Assembly: GCA_045535385.1 (NCBI GenBank)
Contig: JAZSLN010000036.1
Coordinates: forward strand, 1-48,596
Direction of reading: 5' to 3'
DNA: 48,596 nucleotides
From: Eubacteriales bacterium
GTDB taxonomy: Bacteria > Bacillota > Clostridia > Oscillospirales > CAG-382
In this document: piece after piece, positions 2,661 to 39,628 of the stretch
Layout of the letters: the number at the start of each line of letters is the position of its first letter
Numbering within the stretch: position 1 is the first letter of the stretch
The notes under the pieces: generated by a model
Databases searched by the model: none
The model's input: only the letters and a program-made list of their open reading frames with translations
What the model was told of the DNA's origin: nothing
Position numbers and translations under genes: made by a program

Positions 2661-4358
2661 TTATATTTCCTCTGTTCTTACCATACCTAAAAGCTCCAAG
2701 CATCTTCCGAGAATATTTCTCGTGGCGGAGGTAAGCGCAAAGCGGAACTGTTCGGTCTCGCCGCCCGAGCCGAGAATACGGCAGTTGTGGTAGAATTGGT
2801 TAAACGCGGTGCAGACCGCAAGCGCATAACGCGAAATAATGCTGGGCTCGAATTCGTTTGCGGCGCGGAGCACGGTGTCCCGGAATTCGCTGAGCTTACG
2901 GATAAGCGCCAACTCGTCCTCGACGGGAGCATAATCTCCGTAACCGTCCTTCATTTCTCCGCGGCGGAGTACGCTTGCCGCACGTGCGTAGGTGTATTGA
3001 ATATAGGGACCGGTGTTACCCTCAAAGGAGAGCGTGCCTTCCCAGGTGAAGTTGGTGTCCTTGATACGGCTGTTGGCTAATGCGCTGAATATAACTGCGC
3101 CCAAGCCGACCGCCTCGGAGATAGCCTCTTTGTTTTCGTGAGCAACGTTCTTTTCCTCGATAATCGCTCTCGCCTTGGCAACAGCCTCGTCGAAAACGTC
3201 GTTAAGAAGGATAATGTTGCCCGTACGCGAAGCGAGCTTTTCGCCTCCGAAGCTCATCGTACCGTAGGGGATGTGGACGAGGTTTTTCGACCATTCCTTA
3301 CCCATAAGCTCGGTTACCTTGAACCACTGAGCAAAGTGAAGCGACTGGCCTGCGCTAGTAACGTAGGCGCAGATATCAAAATTATAGGTGTTGTATCTGT
3401 AATTTGCCGCCGCGATGTCGCGGGTGGGATAAAGCGTGCTGCCGTCGCGCTTCAGTATGAGCGCAGGGGGCATATTGTATTCCGAAAGGTCAACGATCGA
3501 AGCGCCGTCATCGATTTTCAGAAGCTCTTTTTCGCGGAGCTCGTCCACGATGGCGGGCATCTTGTCGGTGTAAAGGCTTTCGCCGTCCCAAACGTCGAAT
3601 TCTATACCCAAACGCTTATAGGTTTGGGTGTATTCGCGGAGCGAGATGTCCTTGAACAACTGCCATATTGCGAGATATTCCTCGTTGCCGTTTTCGAGCT
3701 CGCGGAACGCGGCGCGGGCTTGGTCGTTTAGAGAAGGGTCTTTTTCCGCTTCCTTGCCGAACATAACGTATATACGCTCAAGCTCCTTGATGCCTTCGCG
3801 TTCGAGCTGTTCGCGGCTCGACCATTTTTTGAACGCAACTATCTGCTTGCCGTTTTGGGTACCCCAATCTCCGAGGTAGTTAAGTGCAACGGTTTTGTAA
3901 CCGCAGAATTTATAAATATTACGTACCGCGTTACCGATAACCGTTGTTCCGAGGTGGCCGAGGTGGAAACGCTTTGCAATATTGGGAGAAGAAAAGTCTA
4001 AAACGATGGTTTTTCCTTCGCCGACCTTGGCTAATTCGGGATATTCGTCCGAGAGGAGCTTTTTCAGATCCTCCAAATATTTATCGCTCGCAAAAAAGAA
4101 GTTGAGATAAGGACCTACCGATTCGATTTTTTCAAAGCCCGAAACTCCGTCAAACGAAGCGCAAAGCTCCGCGGAAATGGCGGCAGGGTTGCTTCTTAAA
4201 ATCTTCGAAAGCTTGAAGCAGGGGAGCGCTATATCGCCCATCTTGCTGTCGGCAGGTGTCTCGAGGAAGGACATAACCTCGTCGGAAGAAAGGTTAGCGC
4301 CCTTCGATTCTACGAACGCACTTACTTTTTCACAAATAATCGTTTTGATATCACTCAT
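2661..4358 (-). CDS. argS: Arginyl-tRNA synthetase
   Basis: 565-aa ORF with FSSPNIAKRFHLGHLGTTVIG (HIGH region) and a C-terminal anticodon-binding DALR-like region. Length is typical of ArgS. Confidence 0.95.
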   Translation of the reverse strand: MSDIKTIICEKVSAFVESKGANLSSDEVMSFLETPADSKMGDIALPCFKLSKILRSNPAAISAELCASFDGVSGFEKIESVGPYLNFFFASDKYLEDLKKLLSDEYPELAKVGEGKTIVLDFSSPNIAKRFHLGHLGTTVIGNAVRNIYKFCGYKTVALNYLGDWGTQNGKQIVAFKKWSSREQLEREGIKELERIYVMFGKEAEKDPSLNDQARAAFRELENGNEEYLAIWQLFKDISLREYTQTYKRLGIEFDVWDGESLYTDKMPAIVDELREKELLKIDDGASIVDLSEYNMPPALILKRDGSTLYPTRDIAAANYRYNTYNFDICAYVTSAGQSLHFAQWFKVTELMGKEWSKNLVHIPYGTMSFGGEKLASRTGNIILLNDVFDEAVAKARAIIEEKNVAHENKEAISEAVGLGAVIFSALANSRIKDTNFTWEGTLSFEGNTGPYIQYTYARAASVLRRGEMKDGYGDYAPVEDELALIRKLSEFRDTVLRAANEFEPSIISRYALAVCTAFNQFYHNCRILGSGGETEQFRFALTSATRNILGRCLELLGMVRTEEI

Positions 4359-15805: not shown

Positions 15806-17515
15806 TTACATAGGCGAGCCGTCTTTTGCACGGCGAATCTTGTTTGTCGTCGTTTTAACGAAGGGCTCTTCGCGGATGATAACGTGGGTTATCTGCTTAT
15901 AGGTCGGTAACTGAGCGAGCTTTTCGTAAATATCGCTCTTTAGCTTTGCGGTGAGCTCGTCCTTGTTTCCGCTCGCGAGATAATCGGGGTCGAGCGCACA
16001 TTGAACCGCAAGCGCATCCTCGGTACCGTCTTCGGCGCGTGAGCCGTAGACGATGCATTCGAGAACGTAGGGAATACCGCAAATATAATCCTCAAGCTCC
16101 TCGGGATAGATGTTCTTGCCGTTGCCGAGGATGATAATATTCTTCTTACGGCCGGTAATAACGATCTGACCGATGCTTGTTATCTTGCCGTAGTCGCCGG
16201 TACGGAAATAGCCGTCCTCGGTGAATGCCTCGGCAGTAGCTTCGGGGTTTTTGTAATAACCCAGCATAACGGTGTCGCCCTTGACGCATATCTCACCCTC
16301 TTCGTCTTCGTTCGGGTCGTCGATACGTACGTCAACACAAGCCATAGGGAATCCTACGGTGCGCGGGTCGCTGATAAAGTCGGTGTTGACCGATACGAGG
16401 GGCGAACATTCGGTTATACCGTAGCCGTTGTTTACAAGAATACCGATGTCGTTGAAGAAATCGACGATTTCAGCACGGAGCGGAGCACCGCCGCAGATCA
16501 ACAAGACAAGGTTTCCGCCGAGACCGGCGTGGATTTCGGCGAATATTTTGCGTCTTGCGTCGATGCCGATAGCACGTAGGAAGTTAGAAAGCTTGCGTGC
16601 GGTTTTGATCGTTTTTGTCTTGCCCTTTTCTTCGATGCTCGCGTTAAGACGGCGGTAAAGAACCTCCATAAGCGCGGGAACAACGTACATATATTCGGGC
16701 TGATAAAGCGCGAGGTTTTTAACGATTCTCTTTAAGCTGTCGTTTATAGCAACGGTATTGTGTCTGTGGATAGCCACGAGAATGCCGGCAATAGATTCGT
16801 AAGCGTGATGGTAGGGAAGCACCGATAACGCGGTGTCGCGGAGGCTGGTTAGCTTGAGTCCCCAATGTATAAGCGATTTGATGTTGTGCTCGGAGAGCAT
16901 AACGCCTTTTGCCAGTCCCGTTGTGCCCGAGGTATAGATGAGCATTTTCATAGCCATCATATCCTTGGTTTCCATTTCACAGAACTCGCGGTCGCCGTCT
17001 TCGTAAAGCTTTTTGCCCTTCTTCATAAGAAGCTTGAAGGATAAAAACTCGCCTTCGTCCTCTTCTCTGTCGAAGGAAACGAAATATTTAACGTTGGGGA
17101 GTTGGTCGCGGATGGAACGGAATATCTCCTCGCGCTTCTTGTCGCAGAAGATTATATCGTCGTCGCCGTGGTTGATAACCGTAACGAGGTCATCCGCAGG
17201 AAGCTCTTTGTCGATAGGGCAGAAAACACCTTCGCTCTGGAGCGCAGTAAGGAAAACAGCTATCCAATTATAGCTGTTCTCGGCACAGCAACCGATATGG
17301 CCTCTCGCCATTCCGAGCGAGTTGAGTCCGGTGCCGATGTAGAGAGTATCCATACGGAAATCACGGTAGGTAACCTCGACAGTGCCACCTTTTCCACGGT
17401 ATTTATATGCGATTTTGTCGCCTGCATCGTCGGCAGCCATCAAAAGCATGTGCTTTATATTTTTAGGTTCGGGAAGATTCATTTCCGGTTCTCTTGCGAG
17501 AGCGTTTTTTGCCAT
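15806..17515 (-). CDS. AMP-dependent (long-chain type) acyl-CoA ligase
   Basis: 569 aa. AMP-binding motif LIYTSGTTGLAKGVMLSEHN, FRTGDYG, and a C-terminal TTTNKIRR. The gene has its own promoter and terminator. Confidence 0.85.
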   Translation of the reverse strand: MAKNALAREPEMNLPEPKNIKHMLLMAADDAGDKIAYKYRGKGGTVEVTYRDFRMDTLYIGTGLNSLGMARGHIGCCAENSYNWIAVFLTALQSEGVFCPIDKELPADDLVTVINHGDDDIIFCDKKREEIFRSIRDQLPNVKYFVSFDREEDEGEFLSFKLLMKKGKKLYEDGDREFCEMETKDMMAMKMLIYTSGTTGLAKGVMLSEHNIKSLIHWGLKLTSLRDTALSVLPYHHAYESIAGILVAIHRHNTVAINDSLKRIVKNLALYQPEYMYVVPALMEVLYRRLNASIEEKGKTKTIKTARKLSNFLRAIGIDARRKIFAEIHAGLGGNLVLLICGGAPLRAEIVDFFNDIGILVNNGYGITECSPLVSVNTDFISDPRTVGFPMACVDVRIDDPNEDEEGEICVKGDTVMLGYYKNPEATAEAFTEDGYFRTGDYGKITSIGQIVITGRKKNIIILGNGKNIYPEELEDYICGIPYVLECIVYGSRAEDGTEDALAVQCALDPDYLASGNKDELTAKLKSDIYEKLAQLPTYKQITHVIIREEPFVKTTTNKIRRAKDGSPM

Positions 17516-17664: not shown

Positions 17665-18777
17665 TTAATCAACATATTTGGCATTAAAAGTCGATACATC
17701 GCCGATGTCGGCTCTGTCGAGCTCGGTTACCGCAAACATAACGGTGAACAAATCCGGAAATATTCCGTCCATGCTCCATCGGTCGATGTATACCGTAAGA
17801 CCGTTCTTGCCGTAAGTGACGGCGGCGGTATAAGCAACGTAGCTTCCGTCGGGAAGACCTATTTGTGTAAGAGTGAGCACCTTGGTGTCGAAAAAGTCTT
17901 CGGGAAGAGATTCTGCATATTCCGCAAGCTCGCGATTTCCGTCGCAAAGCTCTTCAAGCTGCTCGAAGTTAGTTATAAGGCGGTGAGGAAGAATTTCTTC
18001 CGTGACTATACACGAGTCGGCACTGAAAGAATAGTTAACACCGTAAATGTTAGCTTCGATAATTTCAGCGCGAGCAGAAGTACAGTCCGCGATATCGGAT
18101 TTGTTGACTTCCGCGGTCATAAGACGGTTTTGACAGTCATCTGTGCCTTCGCCATAGCCTATTACCGAGATCTCGGTAAGAATTTCGCTTCCGTTAACCT
18201 TTACACCTTCAATGCTGATGATCGCAGAGCCTGTAGAAGCGAAAACGGGAGTTATAACGAGCGCCTTGGTTTCGAAATAGTCATCGGAAAGCGCTTCGGC
18301 AAAATCAATAAAGGGCTCGTCGTTAACGGAATTGCCGTAATTGAGATAGACATCAAGCAAAGCGTTAAGCTGATCGGAATCGGTAATGAGGAACGAAACC
18401 AATTCCATACCGTATTCGGGACGGATACCCTGAATGTCATATTCTTCGAGAGAACCCGAAAGACCGTGTGCCGTGTAGGGGATGTCTTTTTCCTCGACAA
18501 CTACGTCGCTTTCGACGGAAAGATATGCTGCCTTAACGAGAATACAGTCGAAAATGTTGGTTTTGCCGTCGCCGTTAACGTCGCCGCCGTTAAATTCGGG
18601 GACAGTATCGATAGATCCGAGGTAAATACCCTTGATGAAGATATAGTCGAACATATTTACTTTACCGTCGCCGTTAACGTCGTAGATGTCTTGGTTCGGT
18701 TCAGCCTCTGCAACAGCCGATAAGGGAACAATTGCGGTCATAAAAACAACAAGGATGAGGGAAATAAGCTTTTTCAT
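17665..18777 (-). CDS. Secreted dockerin-containing protein with two copies of an uncharacterised ~105-aa domain
   Basis: Start at MKKLISLILVVFMTAIVPLSAVAEA (AAAGGAG RBS and a signal peptide). Two dockerin Ca-binding repeats, DVNGDGKVNMFD and DVNGDGKTNIFD. These are followed by two related domains containing YFETKALV/FFDTKVLT. Confidence 0.8.
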   Translation of the reverse strand: MKKLISLILVVFMTAIVPLSAVAEAEPNQDIYDVNGDGKVNMFDYIFIKGIYLGSIDTVPEFNGGDVNGDGKTNIFDCILVKAAYLSVESDVVVEEKDIPYTAHGLSGSLEEYDIQGIRPEYGMELVSFLITDSDQLNALLDVYLNYGNSVNDEPFIDFAEALSDDYFETKALVITPVFASTGSAIISIEGVKVNGSEILTEISVIGYGEGTDDCQNRLMTAEVNKSDIADCTSARAEIIEANIYGVNYSFSADSCIVTEEILPHRLITNFEQLEELCDGNRELAEYAESLPEDFFDTKVLTLTQIGLPDGSYVAYTAAVTYGKNGLTVYIDRWSMDGIFPDLFTVMFAVTELDRADIGDVSTFNAKYVD

Positions 18778-18863
18778 ATGTAATGCTCCTTTCGCATACT
18801 GTTTTTTGTCCTCATACATTAAGTACGGAAAAAAGAGGGAACATTACAAAATTTTTGAGAAAA

Positions 18864-28555: not shown

Positions 28556-29165
28556 TTTCGGCTACATCCTCAGCAGTCGCATTTACGCTTTCCTCGGCCG
28601 TTTCTTCAACCGTTTCTTCGGTTGCTTCCTCGACAGGTTCTTCGGTTGCGATTTCTTCGGGATTTTCGGGTGCAGACTCGGATTTGATACGCGCTTCGAC
28701 CTTAGCGTCGAGGAAGATCACGTAGACAGCGAGAAGCACCGCGCCGACGGTAACAAAACAATCGGCAACGTTGAAAATCGGGAACTTTATAAAGTCCGTC
28801 TTGAGAAAATCGACAACGTATCCCAAACGGAAACGGTCGATCATATTACCGATCGCTCCTCCGAGAATCATCGACAAAGCGATATTCATGAGCGGATGAC
28901 GCTTGTAAAACTTGATAAGAATATAAACTATCAAAGCCATTGCGGCGAGGGAGATGCCGAGTAAAACGACTCTCTGCCATCCGCCGTCGTTGAGGATCGA
29001 AAAACCGCCGCCTTTGTTTTCGGCATAGGAAAGCGAGAGAACGTGGGGAATGAATCCCTGCGTCCAATCGCTGATTCCGTTAACGGGGTTTGCCGCTTGA
29101 ACGACAAAATATTTCGTGATCTGGTCGGAAACTACCGCCAAAATTACAATAATTATCGCTAACAT
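28548..29165 (-). CDS. lspA: Lipoprotein signal peptidase II (with a ~50-aa acidic C-terminal tail)
   Basis: AENKGGGFS, GGAIGNMIDR and FNVADCFVTVG are LspA motifs. The tail reads PEEIATEEPVEEATEETVEETAEES. Confidence 0.9.
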   Translation of the reverse strand: MLAIIIVILAVVSDQITKYFVVQAANPVNGISDWTQGFIPHVLSLSYAENKGGGFSILNDGGWQRVVLLGISLAAMALIVYILIKFYKRHPLMNIALSMILGGAIGNMIDRFRLGYVVDFLKTDFIKFPIFNVADCFVTVGAVLLAVYVIFLDAKVEARIKSESAPENPEEIATEEPVEEATEETVEETAEESVNATAEDVAENG

Positions 29166-31963
29166 ACTGCTTTACGGCAACGTGCACAGAGATGCTGACC
29201 GTCTTCATCGGCGGTGCAATCGTTCTTGTGCATCCAGCAACGTACGCACTTTTCACCGTCAGCAACCGAAACAGAAACGGAAATTCCGGTTTCTTCGTCG
29301 GTGTAAGCGCTTTCGGGAGCGTTTTCGGACGAAAGGGAAGCCTTGCTTACGATGAATATTTCGGGAAGAATAGATTCAAATTCGGCAAAGAGCTTGAATG
29401 TATCGCTTTCGGACTTAGCGTATATAACAACGCTTGCCTCGAGAGATTTACCGATGATCTTATCCGCACGTGCGATCTCGAGCGCCTTCATAACTCCGTC
29501 GCGGAGGTTGAAGAGTGCTTCGTATTTAGCCTCGATATCCGAGAAGTCGAGCTTTTCGTCAAATTCGGGCATACGGTTAAGGAATACGCTCTCGAGGTCG
29601 TCGCCGTCTGCGTGGCACATAAAGTCCCAGGTTTCCTCAGCGGTATAGGACAAAATGGGCGCGAGAAGACGGGTGAGCGAGTTTACGATGATATACATCG
29701 CGGTCTGCGCGCTTCTGCGAGCCGCGTCGTCCTTAGTTTCACAGTAAAGTCTGTCCTTGGTGATGTCGATATAAAGCTTCGACATATCTATCGAACAGAA
29801 ATTGTGGATATCGTGGTATACGATATGGAATTGATAGGTGTCATAAGCATCACGAACTCGCTTAACGAGCTTGTTGAGACGCGAAAGAGCCCATTTGTCG
29901 ATATCGGTAAGGTTTTCTAGCGCAACCATATCCTTGTTGGGGTCGAAATCGGTCTCGGGTGAGCCGAGGTTAGCGAGAAGGATACGCAACGTATTTCTGA
30001 GCTTGCGGTAGGATTCCGAAAGCTGCTTGAAGATCTCTTTAGAACAACGTACGTCCGCATGATAGTCGGAGGATGCCGCCCAGAGACGAAGGATATCCGC
30101 GCCGAAATCCTTAATAAGATCGGCGGGGTCAACACCGTTGCCGAGACTCTTGTGCATCGCACGTCCCTGACCGTCAACGACCCAGCCGTGAGTCAATACC
30201 TGCTTGAAGGGAGCGCCCTTATCAAGCGCGCCTACCGAGGTAAGAAGGCTCGACTGGAACCAACCGCGGTACTGGTCTGCGCCTTCAAGATATACGTCCG
30301 CAGGCCAAAGATCGGGGGTGTCCTTCATAAGAGAAGCAAAATGGGTGGAGCCGGAGTCGAACCAACAGTCGAGGGTGTCGGTCTCCTTCTCAAAACTCTT
30401 GCCGTTACAGTGCGGGCAGGTGAAGTTTTCGGGAATAAGCTCTTCTGCGCTGAGCTCGAACCAGATATTAGAACCGTGCTCGTTGAAGAGCTCGGAGATT
30501 TTTGCGATAGATTCGGGGGTGGAAATGGGCTTGCCGCAATCCTTACAGTAAAATACGGGAATGGGAAGGCCCCAACGGCGTTGACGGGAAATACACCAAT
30601 CGGCTCTTTCGCGGATCATGCTTATCATTCTGTCTTCGCCCCAAGCGGGATACCATTGAACGTTCTCGATAGCCTTTATTGCCTGATCCTTGAAGGATTC
30701 GACAGAGCAGAACCATTGGGGAGTCGCACGGAAGATGACCGGCTTTTTGCAACGGTCGTGGTGGGGATAGGAGTGCATTATGCTTTCGGATGCGAAAAGT
30801 GCGCCCGATTCTCTCATATCCTCTAAAATAATGGGGTTGGATTCCTCGGTTTTGAGACCTGCATATTTTCCTGCATAATCGGTGTGTCTGCCGTAATCGT
30901 CAACGGGAACGACAAGATCCATACCGTAACGCATACAGGTCTGGTAGTCGTCGGCACCGAAGCCGGGAGCGGTGTGTACGCATCCCGTACCGCTGTCCAT
31001 GGTAACGTATTCGGCGTTAACCAAGCGGGAGGTCTTATCCAGGAAGGGGTGAACGGCTATCATATTCTCGAAGAATTCTCCGGGGAATGTAGCTAAAATC
31101 TCGTAATTTTCAAATCCGCCGAGCTTCATTGTTTTTTCGGCGAGTGCTTCTGCCATAATATAGGTTTCGCCGTTTTCTGCCTTTATGAGAGCATAGCTTT
31201 CGCGGGGATGCAGACAGATCGCCATATTACCGGGAAGAGTCCAGATAGTGGTGGTCCAAATGACGAAATAGGTATTTTCAAGGTAGAATTCGTTGAGCTT
31301 GCCCTGATCGTCCTTCATTTTGAACTTGACGTAAACGGAGGTACAGGGGTCGTCATGATATTCTATATCGGCTTCGGCAACGGCGGTAGCACAGAAGGGA
31401 CACCAGGTTACGGGCTTGAGACCCTTGTAAATGTAGCCCTTATCGAACATGGCGCCGAAGATTTTAACTTCCTGCGCTTCGAAGTGCTTGTCCATAGTAC
31501 GGTAAGGAGCGTCCCAATCACCTACAACGCCGAGACGTCTGAAGCCGGACATCTGCTTCTGGATAAAGTCCTCTGCGAAATCCTCGCACGCCTTTCTGAA
31601 TTCGGGGACGGACATATCCTTATTCAAATCCTTTTTGGATTTTTCAATAGCTCTTTCAATAGGAAGACCGTGGTTATCCCAACCGGGAACGTAAGGGGTG
31701 TAATATCCGCTCATTGCTTTGGATTTTACGATAAAATCCTTCAAAACCTTGTTAAGAGCGTGGCCCATGTGGATGTAACCGTTAGAAAAGGGAGGGCCGT
31801 CGTGCAATACGAAAGCGGGGTTTCCTTCATTCTTTTCCAAAATCTTTTTGTAAAGCTGCTGATCGTTCCAGCGCTCAAGCATTACGGGTTCCTTCGAGGG
31901 AAGGTTTGCTCTCATAGGATAATCCGTAGAGGGCAAATTGAGTGTATCCTTATAATCTTTCAT
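29159..31963 (-). CDS. ileS: Isoleucyl-tRNA synthetase
   Basis: 934 aa. PFSNGYIHMGHAL (HIGH), a KMSKS-like HKSLGN, and C-terminal zinc-finger cysteines (CVRCW...CARC). Confidence 0.95.
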   Translation of the reverse strand: MKDYKDTLNLPSTDYPMRANLPSKEPVMLERWNDQQLYKKILEKNEGNPAFVLHDGPPFSNGYIHMGHALNKVLKDFIVKSKAMSGYYTPYVPGWDNHGLPIERAIEKSKKDLNKDMSVPEFRKACEDFAEDFIQKQMSGFRRLGVVGDWDAPYRTMDKHFEAQEVKIFGAMFDKGYIYKGLKPVTWCPFCATAVAEADIEYHDDPCTSVYVKFKMKDDQGKLNEFYLENTYFVIWTTTIWTLPGNMAICLHPRESYALIKAENGETYIMAEALAEKTMKLGGFENYEILATFPGEFFENMIAVHPFLDKTSRLVNAEYVTMDSGTGCVHTAPGFGADDYQTCMRYGMDLVVPVDDYGRHTDYAGKYAGLKTEESNPIILEDMRESGALFASESIMHSYPHHDRCKKPVIFRATPQWFCSVESFKDQAIKAIENVQWYPAWGEDRMISMIRERADWCISRQRRWGLPIPVFYCKDCGKPISTPESIAKISELFNEHGSNIWFELSAEELIPENFTCPHCNGKSFEKETDTLDCWFDSGSTHFASLMKDTPDLWPADVYLEGADQYRGWFQSSLLTSVGALDKGAPFKQVLTHGWVVDGQGRAMHKSLGNGVDPADLIKDFGADILRLWAASSDYHADVRCSKEIFKQLSESYRKLRNTLRILLANLGSPETDFDPNKDMVALENLTDIDKWALSRLNKLVKRVRDAYDTYQFHIVYHDIHNFCSIDMSKLYIDITKDRLYCETKDDAARRSAQTAMYIIVNSLTRLLAPILSYTAEETWDFMCHADGDDLESVFLNRMPEFDEKLDFSDIEAKYEALFNLRDGVMKALEIARADKIIGKSLEASVVIYAKSESDTFKLFAEFESILPEIFIVSKASLSSENAPESAYTDEETGISVSVSVADGEKCVRCWMHKNDCTADEDGQHLCARCRKAVC

Positions 31964-31989
31964 AATTTGCGCGTTTAAGGCGGAGCCGA

Positions 31990-32787
31990 TTATTCGGTTT
32001 CGCCGTCTCCCATCATAAATTTAAGATATTCATCTTCTGCCTTCTTTGCCTGCTTGCGTGATTCGGGCAGAACCTCTTCTTCGGCTTCGGGTATCGGTTC
32101 CAAAACGAGCTCGTTGCTCTCTTCGGTTGTTTCGGGAGTGCCAAAGGTCAACTCTTCGATAACTTTGTTTTCTTCCTCAACGACCTCTTGGGTTTCCTCG
32201 GGTTCTTCGATGATAACCGGCTGTTCCTTGAGCTCGCGAACGTTTTTGCGGCGTTCGGTCTCGGCTTCGATCCTCGTTTTAACGTCGTTGAATATTCCGG
32301 CAACAAGCGCGTCATCGTTGGGGAACACAATGTCCTCGATCTCGTTTACGCTCAAATCCTTGAGCTCTTCTATATGGTTGGCGTAAAGCTCATAAACCTG
32401 CTTCTTGAAGTCGATAATGCGGGTACGCATTACCCAAGCCTTTTCCTTTTCCGACTGAAGCTGTTGACGGAATTCGGCGATAACACCGTCGCAACGGTCT
32501 TTGATCGCGCCCGTGATGATGTCAGCGCGGTCGTTCGCGTCGGCAATGATCTTCTCCGCCATTTTTTGCGCAGCAATAAGAGTGCTTCTTATAGATTCTT
32601 CTTCGTCTTTTATTTCATCAAGATTTGTAACAACGATTCTGAGCTTGCGTTCGAGCTCGCTGTTTTCACGGTATATCTCGGTGTATTTTTCGAGAACGAA
32701 TTCCAAATATTCGTCAACCTCCTGAGGGTTGTAGCCCTTGAAGGTTTTCTGGAACTGTTTGTTTTTTAGTTCGTGCGGTGCTAACAT
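31990..32787 (-). CDS. divIVA: DivIVA-domain cell-division protein
   Basis: LAPHELKNKQFQKTFKGYNPQEVDEYLEFV is a DivIVA N-terminus, followed by coiled coil and an acidic tail. It lies upstream of ileS, as in B. subtilis. Confidence 0.85.
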   Translation of the reverse strand: MLAPHELKNKQFQKTFKGYNPQEVDEYLEFVLEKYTEIYRENSELERKLRIVVTNLDEIKDEEESIRSTLIAAQKMAEKIIADANDRADIITGAIKDRCDGVIAEFRQQLQSEKEKAWVMRTRIIDFKKQVYELYANHIEELKDLSVNEIEDIVFPNDDALVAGIFNDVKTRIEAETERRKNVRELKEQPVIIEEPEETQEVVEEENKVIEELTFGTPETTEESNELVLEPIPEAEEEVLPESRKQAKKAEDEYLKFMMGDGETE

Positions 32788-32917
32788 CGCGAAAACTTCC
32801 TTTCATGTAATATATATTTCGGGTGATTATTTTCAAATTCAGGACGGCCGATGTTCGGTTTTGTCTGTGCCGTCAAAAGACAAAGCCCAAAAGCACTACA
32901 CCAACCGATTTTTTCGG

Positions 32918-33241
32918 TTATATGGGTAGTGCGGTCTGAACAAGTATTATAATAAGGCTGGTCGCCATAAACGAAAAGTCTATCGGTGATTCTTCGAGCG
33001 CAGGAATCTTCGCTAAAAGAACTCGGACGGGATAAACCACCGGCTCGGTAACGACCGAACAGAAGGTTAAAATAAACGAGGGCGATTCCTCGTCGGCAAA
33101 CATCCCGAGAACTGCACGAATAAGCAAAAGCCACATAAGCGCACTAAGGAAAACATAGACTGTTCGCGTGGTTAAAAATAAAAGCTGTTCCAAAAATGAC
33201 ACTCCGTAGCGAACGGAAAAGCTTTGCCGCGCCGAAAGCAC
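32918..33241 (-). CDS. YggT-family membrane protein
   Basis: ~100-aa protein with two hydrophobic segments, between sepF and divIVA (the ylmG position). The start codon is uncertain. Confidence 0.65.
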   Translation of the reverse strand: MLSARQSFSVRYGVSFLEQLLFLTTRTVYVFLSALMWLLLIRAVLGMFADEESPSFILTFCSVVTEPVVYPVRVLLAKIPALEESPIDFSFMATSLIIILVQTALPI

Positions 33242-33343
33242 AAATAATGCTTCCGGCGGGCGCAGAGTTCCTTAGGTTTAATATAAAACGGTTTCCGAAA
33301 TCGGTATCACGTTATATATTATTGTTTTTCCGATAAAAAGAAA

Positions 33344-33811
33344 TTAACGGAAGAGTTCCTTGGGCTTGATAGCCTGGTCTTCGGTAGCCTGGTCAGCAGG
33401 AGCCTGGTCTCCGGAAACGTCAACGTTCTTAGGAGTAACTACGTATGTAGCGTTTGCAACCTTTTTAACCTGACCGTCGATAGCGAAAACAACACCGCAA
33501 AGGAAGTCGATGATTCTCTTTGTGGTTTCCTTGTTGGTTTCTTCAAGGTTGAGTACAACGGTACGTCTTGCGAGGAGATGCTCGCCGATAGCACGAACCT
33601 CGTCGAAGCGTTCGGGCTTAACGACCTTCATTTCAAGAGCGGCGCCGGAGGAGATTCCGCCGGTGGATCTGGAAACGGGTGCTGCTTTGGGAGCGGGAGC
33701 AGGAGCGGGAGCTACTGCTTCGTCCTCGTCTTCGTATTCTTCAAATTCTTCGTTTTCGTCGAAATCTTCGTTGCTGTTGAAGAGATCGCCTAAGCGGTTC
33801 ATAAGTCCCAT
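33344..33811 (-). CDS. sepF: Cell-division protein SepF
   Basis: 155 aa. The conserved C-terminal domain reads VVKPERFDEVRAIGEHLLARRTVVLNLEE...IDFLCGVVFAIDGQVKKV. Confidence 0.88.
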   Translation of the reverse strand: MGLMNRLGDLFNSNEDFDENEEFEEYEDEDEAVAPAPAPAPKAAPVSRSTGGISSGAALEMKVVKPERFDEVRAIGEHLLARRTVVLNLEETNKETTKRIIDFLCGVVFAIDGQVKKVANATYVVTPKNVDVSGDQAPADQATEDQAIKPKELFR

Positions 33812-33839
33812 AATGTGCCTCCAATGTTTTAATTTTCAT

Positions 33840-34517
33840 TTATTTATAAATTCTTTTTCCGAAGATAGAACTGCCTACACGAACGAGTGTAGAACCGCAT
33901 TCGGCTGCGGTAAGATAATCGTCGCTCATACCGAGCGATAAAATATCCATAATACTATTATCTACATTTTTGCGTGATATGTCAATAAATATTTTCTTCA
34001 TTTCTAAAAAATATTCGCTATTATTGCCTCCGTTTACGCATTTCGGCGGAATTGCCATTAATCCGCGGAGCTTCAAATGGGGCAAAGAGGTCAGAAATTG
34101 ACAAAACTCATCTGCTTTTTCGGGGCAGACTCCAGATTTTGTTTCTTCGTTGCCGATATTAACCTCGGCGAGGATCGGCATAACGATTCCGTGCTTCGCC
34201 GCCTGCCGTTCGATTTCGAGCGCGAGCGATTCGCGGTCTACCGATTGTATCATATCGACCTTGTCGATTATATATTTTACTTTGTTTGTCTGCAATGCGC
34301 CGATAAAGTGGAGCTCGGTCTTGCTTCTGTCGATGTATTCGTATTTTTCCAAAAGCTCGTTGACGCGGTTTTCGCCGATAAGGTCGATGCCGCAGGACAA
34401 CGCGAAATTGATCATTTCGGGCGGTATCGTTTTCGTGGCGGCAAGAAGCCGTGCACGTCCGCCAAGCTCGTTTTTTATTCGTTCGATATTTTCGGCGACC
34501 TGTTTTTCGGTGTTCAT
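33840..34517 (-). CDS. yggS: YggS-family pyridoxal-phosphate homeostasis protein
   Basis: 225 aa. LLAATKT contains the PLP lysine. HFIGALQTNKVK and SLGMSDDY are also present. Confidence 0.9.
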   Translation of the reverse strand: MNTEKQVAENIERIKNELGGRARLLAATKTIPPEMINFALSCGIDLIGENRVNELLEKYEYIDRSKTELHFIGALQTNKVKYIIDKVDMIQSVDRESLALEIERQAAKHGIVMPILAEVNIGNEETKSGVCPEKADEFCQFLTSLPHLKLRGLMAIPPKCVNGGNNSEYFLEMKKIFIDISRKNVDNSIMDILSLGMSDDYLTAAECGSTLVRVGSSIFGKRIYK

Positions 34518-34533
34518 TGATAGCCTCGCAAAA

Positions 34534-35901
34534 TCAGTTGAGCCTCATTCCGTCGTACAGCCCTTCGCCTTCGGTAACAACCGCATCGTGGAGCGAAAGC
34601 CGTGTCGGGGAAGTGTAGGTAAGGTCTTTACGGTCGGGGTAAGCGGGGTTTTTCGGCAGCGCGCATACGGAATAGCTTCCGTAGTTGTAAAGGATATCGG
34701 TCTCTTTGAAGACGACCTTGGAGCCGACTACTACGAAAACTCCCGTTTTTCCGTCCACCATACGGAGCGAATCGTTGTGAATACGTATTCCCTCGTACTT
34801 GGCGTGGGCGAGCTCGACCGTTTGACAACGGGAATAGTCGAACCCGGCGGGCATTCGCTTCGAGCTGAAGATCAGAACCGTCATATCCTTGTCGCTTCGG
34901 GGCAGTCTTCGTTCGAGCTTCATGGTAAGCTCGGTGTTGTTCGAATATTGGAAGGTTATCGGATAACTGCTTCCGTCGCGATAGGTTTCCGCCGTGCGTT
35001 TGTCAAGCGCGAGCGCGATATACCAGGTCGAACCGATAACGATTTTTCCCGCGGATGAGTTGATGATCGATTCATCGGGGGTCGCGTCCGAGAGAAAATC
35101 AAACTCGTCGCTCGTGAGATTTTCCAGACGTTCGAGAGTGAATTGGTTTTCGTATCCGTCGACGGTTGCGTAAAAATAACCGCTTTCGGGAGATTGTGTG
35201 GTAAAGCTTGCACCCGAGAGCGTCGCGGAAAGGCTTTCACGTTCCTTTGAAAGGCTGGCGATCTCCGCCGTATAGCTTTCGGAATTGATAAGCGCCTGAC
35301 GGCGGTTCATCAGAATCAAAAGCTCTTCCTTTTCACGTCTTACCTTATCGAAATTATTGAGGTCGGATTGACGTATGATCGAAAGAACGAGCTCGTCGAT
35401 CTGGCTGTCAAGAAGCGTGATGTTGGTGGTGGAAGCACCGGTCGAGAGACTGCTTCGGTTGAGAATGTCGAGACGTGTGTCGATTTCGTTGATCCTTTCA
35501 CGGATCTTCACGTCGTTCGGGTCGGAATAGGTGATGGCGATGTCCTGACCCTTTCTGACCTTTTCGCCGTCGACTGCGAGGAAGCAATGGGTGCCGTCCG
35601 CGCCGGAAGCGACAGTCTTTTCGTCGCGGAATAAGAAGGCATCGACCTCTGTGCGGTCGGTAATACTTGCGTAGGCGGCGGCTTCGGTTTCGATAAACGC
35701 GCCGACGTTAAGCATTAATTGGAGGAAAATATAGGAAACTATCGCTACGGAAATTATCGCCGTGCCGAACTGAGCAAAGAACCTTTTTGCGAAAACAATA
35801 AAACGGTCGGTTTTAGAGCCCTTGGGCGCAAAGCCTTTTGTCGTAGCGACCGATGAGGTCTTCTTTTTGGGCGCGACGCTTGTGTTTTTCTTTTCGCTCA
35901 T
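34534..35901 (-). CDS. Membrane-anchored HlyD-like (barrel-sandwich/coiled-coil) protein
   Basis: 455 aa. Basic N-terminus, one TM segment (GTAIISVAIVSYIFLQLML), a lipoyl-like segment (VDGEKVRKGQDIAI) and a coiled-coil region. The family assignment is tentative. Confidence 0.5.
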   Translation of the reverse strand: MSEKKNTSVAPKKKTSSVATTKGFAPKGSKTDRFIVFAKRFFAQFGTAIISVAIVSYIFLQLMLNVGAFIETEAAAYASITDRTEVDAFLFRDEKTVASGADGTHCFLAVDGEKVRKGQDIAITYSDPNDVKIRERINEIDTRLDILNRSSLSTGASTTNITLLDSQIDELVLSIIRQSDLNNFDKVRREKEELLILMNRRQALINSESYTAEIASLSKERESLSATLSGASFTTQSPESGYFYATVDGYENQFTLERLENLTSDEFDFLSDATPDESIINSSAGKIVIGSTWYIALALDKRTAETYRDGSSYPITFQYSNNTELTMKLERRLPRSDKDMTVLIFSSKRMPAGFDYSRCQTVELAHAKYEGIRIHNDSLRMVDGKTGVFVVVGSKVVFKETDILYNYGSYSVCALPKNPAYPDRKDLTYTSPTRLSLHDAVVTEGEGLYDGMRLN

Positions 35902-35935
35902 TTTGTTTCCTCCTTTCCTTTTTATATATAGATGA

Positions 35936-36814
35936 TTATATATAGATGATTTCGTCCGCAGGCTTGCGGTTGAACCAGGTCAATTGACGTTTTGCGTATC
36001 GTCTTGTATTAAGACAGATATTTTCTTTTACTGTGTTTATATCGATCTCTCCGTCGAAATAAGGATAAAATTCCTTGTATCCTATCGCTTGCGATGCTGT
36101 CGGAGTATCGCGCAGCCCTGCTTCGACGAGTTCTTTAACCTCCTGCTCGAGTCCCGTTTCGAACATAATATCAACGCGCCTGTCGATCCGCGTATAGATA
36201 TTTTCGCGTACTTCGGGGACGAGATAGACGGTTTTGGGAGCGTATCGGCTTTCGTTTATTCGGCTTTTTCTGTCCAGTTCGGATTTCGTTTCTCCGGTTT
36301 TGTAGTAAATTTCCAGAGCGCGTACAACTCTTTTGATGTTGTTCGGGTGAATCGCATCGGCGGATTCGGGGTCGATTACTCGTAATTTGTTGTGTAATTC
36401 CTCGGCACCTATTTCTTCGGCTTCGCGGAAAAGCCTTGCGCGCAGATCACTGTCATCCTCGGTCGCCGAAAGCTCGGTTCCCGAGACGAGCGTGTCGATA
36501 TAAAGCCCTGTGCCGCCTGCAATGATCGGAAGCCTTCCGCGCGAAACGATATCGTCTATCGCGCGTTCGGCAAGGGATACAAACTTTGCCGCCGAAAACG
36601 GCTCGTCTATATCGGCGATATCGATAAGATGGTGGGGAATACCGCATTTTTCTGCTTCGGAGGGCTTCGCTGTGCCGATGTCCATCTTGCGGTAGATCTG
36701 CATAGAATCGCCGCTTATTATTTCGCCTCCGAGCTTGATAGCCTGCTCGATTGCGTATTTACTTTTACCGCTTGCCGTAGGGCCTACGACAACGAGCAGA
36801 GGTATTTTTTCCAT
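35936..36814 (-). CDS. miaA: tRNA dimethylallyltransferase
   Basis: 292 aa. P-loop VVVGPTASGKS, followed by HHLID. Confidence 0.9.
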   Translation of the reverse strand: MEKIPLLVVVGPTASGKSKYAIEQAIKLGGEIISGDSMQIYRKMDIGTAKPSEAEKCGIPHHLIDIADIDEPFSAAKFVSLAERAIDDIVSRGRLPIIAGGTGLYIDTLVSGTELSATEDDSDLRARLFREAEEIGAEELHNKLRVIDPESADAIHPNNIKRVVRALEIYYKTGETKSELDRKSRINESRYAPKTVYLVPEVRENIYTRIDRRVDIMFETGLEQEVKELVEAGLRDTPTASQAIGYKEFYPYFDGEIDINTVKENICLNTRRYAKRQLTWFNRKPADEIIYI

Positions 36815-36850
36815 AAAAAACGTTTCCGATATTACTATTATTAAGTCGAC

Positions 36851-36881
36851 ATCAGGCGCAGGAGGTATTCCTGCGCCTGAT
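36851..36881 (-). terminator. 13-bp GC-rich hairpin after the HTH-cupin-ACS gene
   Basis: ATCAGGCGCAGGA-GGTAT-TCCTGCGCCTGAT. No clear U-tract follows on either strand, so its terminator function is uncertain. Confidence 0.45.
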
Positions 36882-36933
36882 ATACTCCCAAAATAATCTT
36901 AACATATTATCGGGTAAAGTCAATGCTTTTTTA

Positions 36934-39240
36934 TTAATTATTTGTTGCGTTCTTGTCGCTTTCGCGGATCTCTTTACGTCTGATCTTGCCCGAGATGGTC
37001 TTGGGGAGACTTTCAACGAATTCGACTCTTCTCGGATATTTGTAGGGTGCGGTATGCGTCTTGACGTAATTCTGGATTTCCTTTACAAGCTCGTCGCTCG
37101 GCTGTTTATCCTTCGTAAGAACGATAGTTGCCTTTACGACCTGACCTCTCGTTTCATCGGGAACACCGGTGATGGCACATTCGAGAACGTAGGGAAGCTC
37201 CATGATAACGCTTTCGATTTCGAACGGGCCGATACGGTAGCCGCTGGATTTGATAACGTCATCAACACGTCCGACATACCAGAAATATCCGTCTTCGTCG
37301 CGCCAAGCGGTGTCGCCGGTGTGGTACATATCGGGCTTGAGTACGTTGTCGGTCGCCTCCTGGTTCTTGTAATAACCGAGGAACAAGCCGAAGGGCTTTT
37401 CTTCGCCTTCCTTGAGACGGATAACGATCTCGCCCTCTTCGCCGACAGCGGCAGGAGTGCCGTCCTCACGCACAAGGTCAACGTTATAAGCGGGGCTGGG
37501 TTTACCCATCGAGCCCGGCTTGGGATCTGCTCCGTAGAGGTTGCCGATAGCAAGAGTGGTTTCGGTTTGACCGAAGGCTTCCATAAGCTTAAGACCGGTG
37601 GCGGTGTAGAAAAGCTTAAATACTTCGGGGTTGAGCGCTTCGCCTGCGATAGTCGCGTGCTTCAAGGAGGAGAGATCGTATTTCGAAAGGTCCTCGCGGA
37701 TGAAGAAGCGATACATTGTAGGAGGTGCGCAGAAGGTGGTGATGTTGTATTTCTTGAACATAGGAAGGAGCTTCGAAGCATCGAAACGGTCGAAGTCGTA
37801 AACGAAGACAGCCGCCTCGCAGAGCCACTGACCGTAAAGCTTACCCCAGAGAGCCTTGCCCCAGCCTGTGTCGGAGATAGTGAAGTGGAGTCCGTCGGGG
37901 TCTACGTAATGCCAATGTCTGGCGGTTACGATATGACCGAGCGGATAGGTGAAGCTGTGCATTGCGAGCTTCGGATAACCGGTCGTGCCCGAAGAGAAGA
38001 ACATAACCGAGGGATCGTCCTTCGAGTTCTGGACACGCTCGAAAACCGAAGAGCAATTGATAAAGTTTGCGTCGAAATCTTCCCAACCGTCCCTTGCTCC
38101 TTTGACCATGATCTTGGTTTTAAGAGTGGGCGCTTTTTCTGCCGCTCTTGCCGCTTCCTCGGCGGTATTTCCGTCGGAGGTGCAGACAATGGCGCTGATT
38201 TCGCCCGCATTGAAGCGGTATTCGAAGTCGTGCTCGACGAGCTGGTTGGTCGCGGGAACGGCAACAGCACCGAGCTTATGAAGCGCGATCATACATACCC
38301 AGAACTGCCAATGGCGCTTGAGCACGAGCATAACTCTGTCGCCCTTTTTGATACCGAGCGACGAGAAATAGTTCGCTGCTTTCGAAGAAAGACGGGAGAT
38401 ATCCGAGAAGGTGAACTCCATTTCGGTTCCGTCGTTGCCGACCCATTGGATGCATTTCTTGTTGGGTACCTTTGCGGCGAGTGCATCGACAACGTCGTAT
38501 GCAAAGTTGAAATTATCGTTGCAATGAAGCTTGATATCGGTCAATCTTCCGCGTTCGTCGAAGGTTTCGTCTACGAACTGCTTGTAGATACAATCGCTGT
38601 AATCGTGCTCGAGAACAAGCGGCTTGACCTGCTCGTGCGCGGTCATATGGTCGTGCATATCCGTGGGGGTGTGGTCTTCCTTGAAAACGACTGCAAGGAA
38701 GGTACAGTCGGAACCGCCGACAGCGATCATACCGTGGGGATGTGCACTGTCGTAATACACCGTGTCGCCGGGGTTCATAACGTAGGTGTGTTTACCTAAC
38801 TGAACCTTGAGCTGACCGGTGAGGACGAGGTCGAATTCCTGACCCGCGTGAGACGCTACGGGGATAGGTTTGTTTTGCGCTTCTTCTTCGTATTTTGCGG
38901 TAACGATAAAGGGCTCGCTCATACGGTTTTTGAGAAGAGGAGCGACGTGTCGGTAATCAAAGCCCTTTTCGCGCTTTATTGTAATACCGCCGCCGGCGCG
39001 GGTGAGGTTATAAAAGTCGAGCTTGGGGTCGCTGCCCGAAACAAGCTCGGAAATATCCATACCGAGAAGCTTTGCACATTTGAAAAGGAACGTGAAGGAG
39101 AAATCCTCCTCGCCCTGTTCAAGGCGTAAATATTCTGCCTCGCCGATTCCACAGGCATCCGCCATATCGGAAACGGGAATATCGAGGTTTTCTCTCGCCC
39201 ATTTAAGTCTTCCTGCGATAAGTTTTGTTTGCTGGTCCAT
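36934..39240 (-). CDS. Fusion protein: XRE-type HTH + cupin + medium-chain acyl-CoA synthetase (ANL superfamily)
   Basis: 768 aa. HTH segment LKWARENLDIPVSDMADACGIGEAEYLRLEQGE. Cupin segment GQEFDLVLTGQLKV...GDTVYYDSAHPHG. AMP-binding motifs FFSSGTTGYPK, YHTGDTAWRDEDGYFWYVGRVDD and SGKIRRKE. Confidence 0.85.
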   Translation of the reverse strand: MDQQTKLIAGRLKWARENLDIPVSDMADACGIGEAEYLRLEQGEEDFSFTFLFKCAKLLGMDISELVSGSDPKLDFYNLTRAGGGITIKREKGFDYRHVAPLLKNRMSEPFIVTAKYEEEAQNKPIPVASHAGQEFDLVLTGQLKVQLGKHTYVMNPGDTVYYDSAHPHGMIAVGGSDCTFLAVVFKEDHTPTDMHDHMTAHEQVKPLVLEHDYSDCIYKQFVDETFDERGRLTDIKLHCNDNFNFAYDVVDALAAKVPNKKCIQWVGNDGTEMEFTFSDISRLSSKAANYFSSLGIKKGDRVMLVLKRHWQFWVCMIALHKLGAVAVPATNQLVEHDFEYRFNAGEISAIVCTSDGNTAEEAARAAEKAPTLKTKIMVKGARDGWEDFDANFINCSSVFERVQNSKDDPSVMFFSSGTTGYPKLAMHSFTYPLGHIVTARHWHYVDPDGLHFTISDTGWGKALWGKLYGQWLCEAAVFVYDFDRFDASKLLPMFKKYNITTFCAPPTMYRFFIREDLSKYDLSSLKHATIAGEALNPEVFKLFYTATGLKLMEAFGQTETTLAIGNLYGADPKPGSMGKPSPAYNVDLVREDGTPAAVGEEGEIVIRLKEGEEKPFGLFLGYYKNQEATDNVLKPDMYHTGDTAWRDEDGYFWYVGRVDDVIKSSGYRIGPFEIESVIMELPYVLECAITGVPDETRGQVVKATIVLTKDKQPSDELVKEIQNYVKTHTAPYKYPRRVEFVESLPKTISGKIRRKEIRESDKNATNN

Positions 39241-39332
39241 GATGAAAAATCCTTTCTGTAATAGAAAAATTTTCCGATAAAAACATATTTTTTGTTTTTT
39301 CTCGGGCGCAGATGCTTCTGCTTTTCGCCGAT

Positions 39333-39593
39333 AAAAACAAAAATAGCTTCATCTGCAACGAGATGAAACTATTACAAATAGTTACACTATACCACTCATT
39401 TGCCGCGCATATACGCATTTCCCTTTATTACGGCGGAAGCTCCGGCGCGCCCTACTGGTGATTCGGGCGAGCAGCTCGAAGGTGATAAGTCGGTAAGGCG
39501 GCTGTTGCCTCGCACCAAACGGCAACTCTCTGAAAGCTTAACACATATCGACCCGTGTCCTTGTCTGTGCTTTTATCGGTTATGTTTTTGATG
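39333..39593 (-). promoter_or_regulatory. T-box riboswitch leader, specifier AUC (isoleucine), including the terminator at 39371-39333
   Basis: All elements are on the minus strand. K-turn: GC-ACA-GA-CAAGG against CCUUC-GA-GC. Specifier AUC followed by A at 39486-39483. AGAGA bulge. Distal loop GUUUGGUGCGA. Antiterminator bulge UGGUAUA (39394-39388). A competing 11-bp terminator plus U-tract. Confidence 0.72.
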
Positions 39594-39599
39594 ACACAC

Positions 39600-39628
39600 A
39601 TATTATCACTATTGATACGGTTTGTCAA
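39600..39628 (-). promoter_or_regulatory. Promoter of the T-box leader: TTGACA-17-TAATAT with a TGn extension
   Basis: The minus strand reads TTGACAaaccgtatcaatagTGaTAATAT, with the spacer counted as 17 nt. The predicted TSS is about 20 nt before the K-turn. Confidence 0.55.

Follow-up and report, generated by a model that had tools for sequence, protein, structure and literature searches.

The minus strand of contig JAZSLN010000036.1 from an Eubacteriales bacterium (assembly GCA_045535385.1), whose entire 48,596 nucleotides we refer to as the window, carries a leader in front of a gene encoding an HTH-cupin-acyl-CoA synthetase (ACS). Our analysis confirms this leader as a real T-box, far beyond chance, and supports its description as a transcription-attenuating T-box with an isoleucine (AUC) specifier and a divergent core. 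We consider it probable that it constitutes a tRNA-Ile-specific switch that turns on an enzyme activating 2-methylbutyrate, from which isoleucine would then be made through reductive carboxylation. A preliminary description of the region, made from the sequence alone, had proposed an Ile (AUC) T-box leader on this strand, and every element it listed was recovered in its place.

When the region was scanned with relaxed settings, a check which that description had put forward, the Rfam T-box model (RF00230) aligned in full (positions 1-219 of the 219 in the model) to window positions 39576-39356 (-), with a score of 69.6 bits and an E-value of 3.6e-15. The curated gathering score of RF00230 is 93 bits, a value that we treat as a curation device and not as a biological criterion; the leader falls below it, and a gathering-threshold Rfam scan of the entire window returned zero matches, as anticipated by the earlier remark that automated annotation might miss the leader. 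A covariance model of our own (R1), derived from the window leader (two near-identical sequences) and of limited sensitivity, identifies the leader as its sole match within the window. The leader, its promoter and the start of the regulated gene comprise the following elements.

39333-39576 (-): whole leader, beginning with the 5' flank of stem I and closing with the terminator U-tract (RF00230 match 39576-39356; R1)
39600-39628 (-): sigma-70-type promoter, with TTGACA at 39628-39623, a 17-nt spacer and a TG-extended TAATAT at 39605-39600 (promoter scan, 10/12 matches)
39474-39570 (-): stem I (Rfam alignment)
39570-39559 and 39482-39474 (-): GA/K-turn strands GCACAGACAAGG and CCUUCGAGC, within stem I
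39552-39544 and 39497-39489 (-): stem I middle helix, GUCGAUAUG/CUUACCGAC
39486-39484 (-): specifier AUC (Ile), with the conserved 3' purine A at 39483, directly above the CCUU helix (Rfam alignment)
39527-39531 (-): AG bulge AGAGA, equal to the invariant AGAGA of the RF00230 consensus
39504-39526 (-): distal hairpin GUUGCC/GGCAAC with loop GUUUGGUGCGA at 39520-39510 (consensus loop gUUGGUGaaA)
39446-39471 (-): stem II, CUCGCCC/GGGCGCG closing the loop GAAUCACCAGUA with its GA...AGUA motif (Rfam alignment)
39428-39444 (-): stem IIA/B region, CGG at 39444-39442 and CCG at 39433-39431, with the F-box-like CCGUAA at 39433-39428 (Rfam alignment to CGg...cCGUUA)
39405-39416 (-): stem III, GCGU-AUAU-GCGC (Rfam alignment)
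39358-39399 (-): antiterminator, with lower helix AUGAG/CUCGU, bulge UGGUAUA at 39394-39388 and upper helix GUGUAACUAUU/AAUAGUUUCAU (Rfam alignment to aGGG-UGGUACC-GCGag)
39333-39373 (-): intrinsic terminator, with a 13-bp stem (39373-39361/39354-39342), loop CGUUGC and U-tract UUUGUUUUU at 39341-39333 (terminator scan)
39238-39255 (-): ribosome-binding site AAAGGA at 39255-39250 and ATG start at 39240-39238 of the regulated gene (sequence, list of open reading frames)

This layout reproduces that of the T-box family (B. subtilis tyrS, glyQS and ileS leaders) in its K-turn, specifier-loop codon and purine, AG bulge, distal loop, stem II, stem IIA/B with F-box-like segment and stem III, and again in its antiterminator with a 7-nt UGGN bulge and its competing terminator with U-tract, the model match being full length. 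It differs from the family in that the 5' and 3' sides of the specifier loop lack the usual AGUA/GAA S-turn letters, in its UGGUAUA-GUG core and sub-threshold score, and in its target, which is neither an aminoacyl-tRNA synthetase (aaRS) gene nor a classical biosynthetic gene nor a transporter. The RNA mechanism is that of a standard transcriptional T-box with a lineage-specific core variant, in which the distal hairpin would serve as the platform for contact with the tRNA elbow.

Folding of the terminator and antiterminator alternatives, likewise proposed beforehand, gave mutually exclusive structures, the 5' strand of the terminator being the 3' strand of the antiterminator (AAUAGUUUCAUCUC). 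The terminator folds at -14.2 kcal/mol (z -5.8), a stability reached by 0/200 shuffled sequences, and the antiterminator adopts exactly the fold drawn above as its minimum free energy (MFE) structure, at -7.8 kcal/mol. Because the terminator is the stronger of the two, termination would be the default and the antiterminator would require stabilization from outside, which is the T-box principle. Two details of the preliminary description were amended. The terminator is present and followed by a U-tract, and the terminator scan gives it 13 bp at 39373-39342 instead of the 11 bp (39371-39344) originally drawn; the antiterminator does contain the 7-nt bulge UGGUAUA, and its lower helix is better represented, on the evidence of orthologues, as contiguous AUGAG/CUCGU than as GCAA..GAG/CUC.UUGC with bulges. 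MFE folds of the whole leader (z -1.8) and of isolated stem I (z +0.6) do not yield the T-box fold; since MFE folding is uninformative for stem I, support for this part was taken from the covariance model and from covariation.

Homologous loci are designated by L-numbers. Seven of them form with the window a clade of eight, their proteins being 89-67% identical to that of the window gene, and at 7/7 of these loci the leader is present in the 350-450-nt gap upstream. AUC-A occupies the specifier position, and the AGAGA bulge is kept, in 8/8 leaders of the clade. The conserved 14-nt T-box sequence, AGGGUGGNACCGCG, has UGAGUGGUAUAGUG as its window counterpart: relative to the consensus UGGNACC-GCG, the window core UGGUAUA-GUG changes ACC to AUA and GCG to GUG, retaining UGGU and the 7-nt bulge geometry. 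This variant core, GAGUGGUA(U/C)A(A/G)UG, recurs in seven of the eight leaders. The eighth (L085:5728-5965) reads GAGCGGUA, with CGGU for UGGU at the start of the bulge; its antiterminator/terminator region aligns poorly, and it may be degenerate or differently built.

Pairing is maintained throughout this clade, with 92.4% of pair cells paired against 36-51% when partners are slid, and 30/54 pairs showing double-sided changes; 0/500 shuffles reach any of these pairing measures in an alignment that was fitted to our own model. Double-sided changes affect 5/7 pairs of stem II (in L081, for instance, CGCCC/GGGCG becomes AUACC/GGUAU), and 9/11 pairs of the upper antiterminator helix covary. RNAalifold, applied independently to a plain, structure-blind MAFFT alignment, returned 24 compensatory pairs and the helices of stem I and stem II together with the terminator, for which 5 compensatory pairs were counted. 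The covariation in related loci that the preliminary description had suggested looking for is thus found, in the form of helices kept through compensatory pair changes. The divergent core is not the result of decay, being conserved in an eight-genome clade with many compensatory changes. The five clade relatives tested score 55-85 bits against RF00230, which together with the window places 6/6 scored members (of eight) below threshold, and seven complete, more distant orthologous leaders reach 90-100 bits with the canonical UGGUACCGCG core. The Rfam gathering threshold therefore misses a whole clade of functional-looking T-boxes.

The same architecture extends across the enzyme family. A scan of one genome per species yielded 80 full-length homologues with 54-61% identity, all but two from Clostridia metagenome-assembled genomes (MAGs) of gut or rumen, and R1 finds 97 T-boxes in their loci. 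Over these 97 leaders, the paired fraction of pair cells is 92.6%, falling to 40-46% when partners are slid, and double-sided change is seen at 49/54 pairs. Helices 1-7 of stem I are 77-100% paired, with double-sided changes; the distal hairpin helix is 96.6% paired, with covariation at 5/6 pairs; stem III (helix 10) is 97.8% paired, with covariation at 4/4 pairs; and stem IIA/B is 97% paired, the CGGA/UCCG register drawn at first and the CGG...CCG register of Rfam being indistinguishable on these data. A T-box precedes at least 73 of the 86 homologous genes with enough upstream DNA, a lower bound given that R1 misses leaders with the core motif (L043, L073) or with a weak Rfam match (L016), and in every case the specifier is one for Ile (AUC) or Val (GUA/GUC). 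Among the leaders before HTH-cupin-ACS genes, AUC fills the specifier column in 53, which head orthologues, and GUA/GUC in approximately 33, which head paralogues, with varying flanking bases; leaders with CUC, ACA or other specifiers (Leu, Thr and so on) head other genes. Many loci carry tandem paralogues, always as an Ile-leader-ACS followed by a Val-leader-ACS.

Some family members depart from this pattern. The leader of the orthologue at L016:1647-1799 is only 153 nt long, lacks the AGAGA bulge, scores 46.9 bits against RF00230 and may be a shortened T-box variant. Clear T-box negatives among the family genes include two non-Firmicutes genomes; L007 and L061 (Victivallaceae, Lentisphaerae MAGs) carry full-length HTH-cupin-ACS genes outside Firmicutes, or in contigs binned there. 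Four Ruminococcus MAGs (L015, L031, L058, L066) likewise hold HTH-cupin-ACS homologues with no detectable T-box, and regulation must therefore differ in these two groups. Two candidate motifs were rejected. A palindrome between the -35 and -10 hexamers of the window (TATCA-N4-TGATA), considered as an autoregulatory operator, is absent from the close relative L081, in which both hexamers are kept and the spacer has diverged. A second GAGUGGCA motif, which certain loci show some 24 nt before the T-box, is the conserved AGuGg linker that the Rfam consensus places at stem III, on its 5' side.

The regulated gene was identified as an HTH-cupin-acyl-CoA synthetase and not an aaRS in the preliminary description, and its domain content agrees.

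36934-39240 (-): regulated gene, HTH-cupin-acyl-CoA synthetase, 768 aa (Pfam, list of open reading frames)
39207-39043 (-): HTH_3, aa 12-66 (Pfam)
38865-38686 (-): Cupin_2, aa 126-185 (Pfam)
38478-37372 (-): AMP-binding, aa 255-623 (Pfam, E 1e-58)
37221-36985 (-): AMP-binding_C, aa 674-752 (Pfam, E 3e-22)
37860-37858 (-): G461, class-discriminating residue (class-specific residues)
37848-37846 (-): W465, equivalent of Macs Trp259 (invariant residue)

Both AMP-binding domains are present, placing the protein in the ANL fold, and the P-loop SSGTTGYPK is invariant in the ACS family. The closest solved structure is that of M. acetivorans Macs (PDB 3ETC; 657 bits, approximately 60% identity across the catalytic part), an archaeal enzyme that shares with the window protein an AMP-forming ANL fold and the equivalences Trp259/W465 and Gly255/G461 and differs from it in having neither an HTH-cupin module nor a T-box. 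The invariant W465 was aligned to Trp259 through its offset from G459-Y460-K461 and R490. Macs prefers 2-methylbutyrate, with Trp259 lining the acyl pocket, and adenylates C3-C8 acids, the onward step to the CoA thioester being efficient only with 2-methylbutyrate (PMC10455477). Among curated families, the best NCBIfam match is MbcS (NF047394), with 456.7 bits against an equivalog cut-off of 850, which makes the window protein a relative and not an MbcS equivalog. MbcS of S. aureus also acts on 2-methylbutyrate, as well as on isobutyrate (PMC10026030). It differs in serving fatty-acid primer supply and in lacking the HTH-cupin module. To our knowledge, MbcS is not T-box regulated. Judging from these homologues, the product of the window gene most likely converts 2-methylbutyrate to 2-methylbutyryl-CoA.

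Specifier identity follows the phylogeny of the enzymes. A distance tree resolves clade A (21 sequences, all Ile, the window included), clade B (29 sequences, all Val) and clade C (the sister of B, with 28 Ile sequences and an exceptional pair from L057). Four residues before W465, within the invariant DTGW-x-K segment, residue 461 is Gly throughout the Ile class (50/50 enzymes) and in Macs (as Gly255), and Ala in 29/30 Val-class enzymes; at HTH residue 54, the Ile classes have Lys and the Val class has Arg. Residue 461 falls inside the region of the A4 acyl-pocket motif (PMC8388817), and at this putative pocket location the Gly/Ala alternative would be a one-methyl difference matching C5 versus C4 substrates. 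In consensus, the window clade has the same pocket segment, ISDTGWGKALWGKLYG, as the Ile clade linked to 2-oxoacid:ferredoxin oxidoreductase (VOR) genes. The L057 locus (L057:2072-7000) contains a Val-specifier (GUA) copy that is closest to its own Ile neighbour and has Gly461 but Arg54, the sole exception to the Gly/Ala rule; it could have arisen by recent duplication, gene conversion or recombination.

Operon context correlates with both specifier and clade. Genes for VorB, the beta and gamma subunits and IlvE lie directly downstream in 20/29 clade B loci and 25/30 clade C loci, in the order small P-loop protein (c1), VorB-type alpha, beta and gamma subunits of VOR, and branched-chain aminotransferase. 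The VorB protein scores 544 NCBIfam bits against a cut-off of 399, and the aminotransferase 486 against 307. Ligases and VorB-type operon together make up a complete route from branched-chain acid through acyl-CoA and 2-oxoacid to amino acid, in keeping with 2-methylbutyrate and isobutyrate being precursors of Ile and Val in rumen organisms (PMC7356843; PMC10658910). For the window, homology (55-60% identity), the shared Ile specifier and the shared pocket motif suggest the same pathway. The c1 protein (L047:11287-11955 and 25 other loci) has 222 aa, weak CbiA/ParA P-loop similarity and no NCBIfam match; always located between the ACS gene or genes and VorB, it could be an accessory factor of the oxidoreductase operon.

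The preliminary description had also set the gene outside the usual T-box regulon, which is true by annotation alone: comparative evidence indicates a place for the enzyme family in branched-chain amino-acid synthesis or salvage, and its regulation would then follow standard T-box logic and be no exception to it. Amino-acid biosynthesis operons account for 18% of the T-boxes in Wels et al. 2008 (PMC2494555) and, as would the leader described here, respond to uncharged tRNA by inducing genes that restore the supply of the matching amino acid; the difference is that the step controlled in the window would activate an exogenous branched-chain acid for reductive carboxylation. Wels et al. proposed for transporters that the specifier predicts the substrate of the regulated protein (PMC2494555), a principle that can be used likewise here.

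Under the mechanism that we favor, transcription would start at the promoter at 39628-39600, and stem I would present AUC to the GAU anticodon of tRNA-Ile, the AG-bulge/distal-loop platform holding the tRNA elbow. If the tRNA is uncharged, its free end, predicted to read A73-CCA, would pair with UGGU in the 7-nt bulge, stabilizing the weak antiterminator against the stronger terminator and allowing RNA polymerase to read into the gene; with charged tRNA, the terminator would form and transcription would halt at the U-tract (39341-39333). No tRNA-Ile gene was found in the window or in 60 fetched loci; the tRNA-Val(UAC) of a related MAG (L015) has A73. The ligase would make 2-methylbutyryl-CoA from 2-methylbutyrate, to be converted by ferredoxin-dependent reductive carboxylation into 2-oxo-3-methylvalerate and by transamination into isoleucine, with enzymes presumably encoded elsewhere. 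Isoleucine starvation would in this manner bring about the salvage of 2-methylbutyrate, a fermentation acid plentiful in both gut and rumen.

Several observations weigh against this mechanism. The Rfam score lies under the gathering threshold, the bulge differs from the consensus at two conserved positions (ACC to AUA), and tRNA binding is a prediction. The window protein stays under the MbcS cut-off (457 versus 850), and its substrate is predicted by homology. None of 20 clade A loci has VOR/IlvE or a tandem paralogue within +-5 kb, and a search for VOR/IlvE/LeuA-like neighbours across the 48.6-kb window gave only AMP-binding cross-hits. The pocket position of residue 461 derives from sequence spacing and not from coordinates, and the Gly/Ala switch traces to essentially one ancient duplication, counting as a single evolutionary event, with L057 as an exception.

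The absence of VOR/IlvE linkage in the window clade bears directly on an alternative in which the T-box works as described and the enzyme supplies 2-methylbutyryl-CoA primers for anteiso fatty-acid synthesis, as in S. aureus, instead of isoleucine synthesis. Scarce isoleucine would then mean scarcity of its catabolic product 2-methylbutyryl-CoA and would induce scavenging of the free acid, and the best NCBIfam model is that of MbcS, which activates 2-methylbutyrate and isobutyrate for branched-chain fatty-acid synthesis (PMC10026030; PMC11167679). Against this stand the missed MbcS cut-off, the sister-clade enzymes, whose operons with a VorB-type oxidoreductase and a branched-chain aminotransferase point to amino-acid synthesis, and the fact that T-boxes sense tRNA charging, which reflects how well translation is supplied with amino acids. 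One use need not rule out the other; as a replacement for isoleucine synthesis, we regard primer supply as unlikely.

A second alternative, to which we assign a low probability, retains the T-box and changes the substrate: the window-clade enzyme would activate propionate, and propionyl-CoA would be carboxylated reductively to 2-oxobutyrate, which enters the ilv pathway to isoleucine. An Ile specifier would also be logical in that case, and Clostridium sporogenes was reportedly found by Monticello et al. in 1984 to make isoleucine from propionate or 2-methylbutyrate. Macs adenylates C3-C8 acids (PMC10455477), and the VOR-linked Ile clade does not include the window clade; yet Macs passes only 2-methylbutyrate efficiently to the CoA thioester, and the two Ile clades have the same pocket-segment consensus.

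The genes that follow ACS raise the question of whether the leader acts at a distance. The relevant features are these.

36851-36881 (-): GC-rich hairpin AUCAGGCGCAGG-aauaccu-CCUGCGCCUGAU, directly after the ACS stop codon (sequence, folding)
29159-31963 (-): ileS, 26 nt after divIVA

An Ile T-box at ileS has been described as the most universal T-box (PMC2494555), and given this near-universality it is unusual that ileS has none here: in 28900-37000, the 8 kb upstream of ileS, no T-box was found by Rfam at E<=1, and R1 with filters off gave at most 6.3 bits. The leader might then serve ileS by Ile-dependent read-through along the co-directional string ACS-miaA-RND-like-yggS-sepF-yggT-divIVA-ileS of approximately 10 kb that it heads, a gene order shared by L081, L082 and L084; the short divIVA-ileS gap and the lack of a U-run after the ACS hairpin in the window would fit such an arrangement. 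We nevertheless judge it very unlikely. The leader accompanies ACS in at least 73 genes whatever follows, including close relatives with other or convergent genes downstream (L083, L086, L087), which retain it. The post-gene spacers of six relatives each contain a hairpin of -15 to -24 kcal/mol and then a U-run, homologous to the window hairpin without one; all relatives have hairpin and U-run after ACS, a conserved promoter-like element precedes miaA, and more promoter-like sites occur inside the string. The hairpin with U-run in the six relatives and the element before miaA indicate that T-box and gene form an essentially monocistronic unit.

In the ACS-miaA spacer (36851-36923 (-); L081:3060-3144; L082:8298-8449), the conserved promoter-like element reads GCATTGACTTTAC...TAAGAT/TAGAAT and is followed by a conserved GC-rich hairpin, GCGCAGGA...UCCUGCGC, with a subsequent U-run in L081 and L082 and not in the window; the hairpin might be both an ACS terminator and a miaA leader structure.

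The notion that the leader is a decaying, non-functional relic, which its 69.6 bits (below 93) and its core UGGUAUAGUG in place of UGGNACCGCG might suggest, is barely tenable, with the variant core, the specifier and every helix conserved across eight genomes whose proteins are 67-89% identical, 30/54 pairs compensatory, a conserved promoter and an intact, strong terminator.

The N-terminal module of the enzyme may add a further layer of control. A phmmer search with the N-terminal 200 aa against PDB returned no match; a profile of these 200 residues matches two-domain HTH plus cupin proteins, among them 1Y9Q, a regulator, at E 6.5e-10 and HppE, an Fe(II) enzyme, at E 3.3e-7, and a structure model (pLDDT 76) has the same top matches by Foldseek (E ~1e-12), with TM-scores of only ~0.4. 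Both domains of the N-terminal 190 residues are thus matched by 1Y9Q, an HTH_3-family regulator of Vibrio cholerae, and by the Fe(II) enzymes HppE/HEPD/MPnS; they differ in domain orientation, hence the TM-score, and in that the window unit is fused to an acyl-CoA synthetase. H131, E135 and H169, within the module (aa 12-185, window 38686-39207), are invariant and occupy the positions of a cupin 2-His-1-Glu metal site. Tentatively, and with more doubt than confidence, we extend the isoleucine T-box into a wider picture: the leader would belong to a large T-box regulon of gut and rumen Clostridia, in which AUC or GUA specifiers label substrate-specialized HTH-cupin-ACS paralogues (Gly461 for 2-methylbutyrate, Ala461 for isobutyrate) heading VorB/IlvE operons, and the fused HTH-cupin, with its invariant His-Glu-His, could provide a second sensor or regulator, one acting at the protein level as BirA does.

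Other observations concern the surroundings of these genes. A Leu (CUC) T-box module, found at L019:1-4600, L048:423-3900, L021, L028, L047, L050 and L055 and inverted in L062, L071 and L079, encodes a LeuA-like protein of 462 aa (HMGL-like plus LeuA_dimer, scoring under the LeuA cut-offs), an 825-aa protein in which a xylose-isomerase-like TIM barrel is fused to a fatty-acid-CoA-ligase domain, and an Amidohydro_2 protein; it adjoins Ile/Val ACS genes in about 10 genomes and may be a leucine-related counterpart. In L004 (7325-8767), L008, L033 and L063, ACS is followed by a 480-aa protein combining an ACT domain like that of the acetohydroxyacid synthase small subunit with a metallo-beta-lactamase fold, the ACT domain hinting at amino-acid sensing; L004 and L008 belong to the window's enzyme clade, and the tree does not include the ACS genes of L033 and L063. 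Two other T-boxes occur at L026:8965-9222 (-) and L048:10572-10834, one with an apparent ACA (Thr) specifier before a 516-aa membrane protein and one with an apparent UCC specifier (register uncertain) before a 442-aa PaaK-like ligase. The window itself also encodes the following proteins, a gene content that points to a spore-forming, cellulosome-type Clostridium.

15806-17515 (-): stand-alone AMP-binding enzyme, the second in the window
2661-4358 (-): argS, with no T-box match at the gathering threshold
17665-18819: dockerin-domain protein
6056-8218: SpoIIE

Within the literature searched, the regulated gene family and the pairing of Ile and Val specifiers with enzyme paralogues appear to be undescribed. 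We found there no description of T-box control of acyl-CoA synthetases or of VOR, an earlier description being possible, and no paper on the gene for an activating enzyme of branched-chain acids or on its regulation; Wels 2008 (PMC2494555) makes no mention of CoA, and the TBDB preprint contains no such case.

The T-box specifier acts here as a built-in annotation, dividing a family labelled "AMP-binding protein" in MAGs into Ile- and Val-linked enzymes, and operon context (VorB, IlvE), Gly/Ala 461 and the substrate of the closest characterized enzyme are all in agreement with this division. Testable predictions follow from it on the specificity of the enzymes and on how these bacteria would sense amino-acid shortage. 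It is long established that Clostridia of gut and rumen require or exploit isobutyrate and 2-methylbutyrate to make valine and isoleucine, which is why ruminants are given branched-chain volatile fatty acids in their feed. If true, the regulon reading would name the genes, and the regulation, of this well-known conversion of branched-chain volatile fatty acids into branched-chain amino acids.

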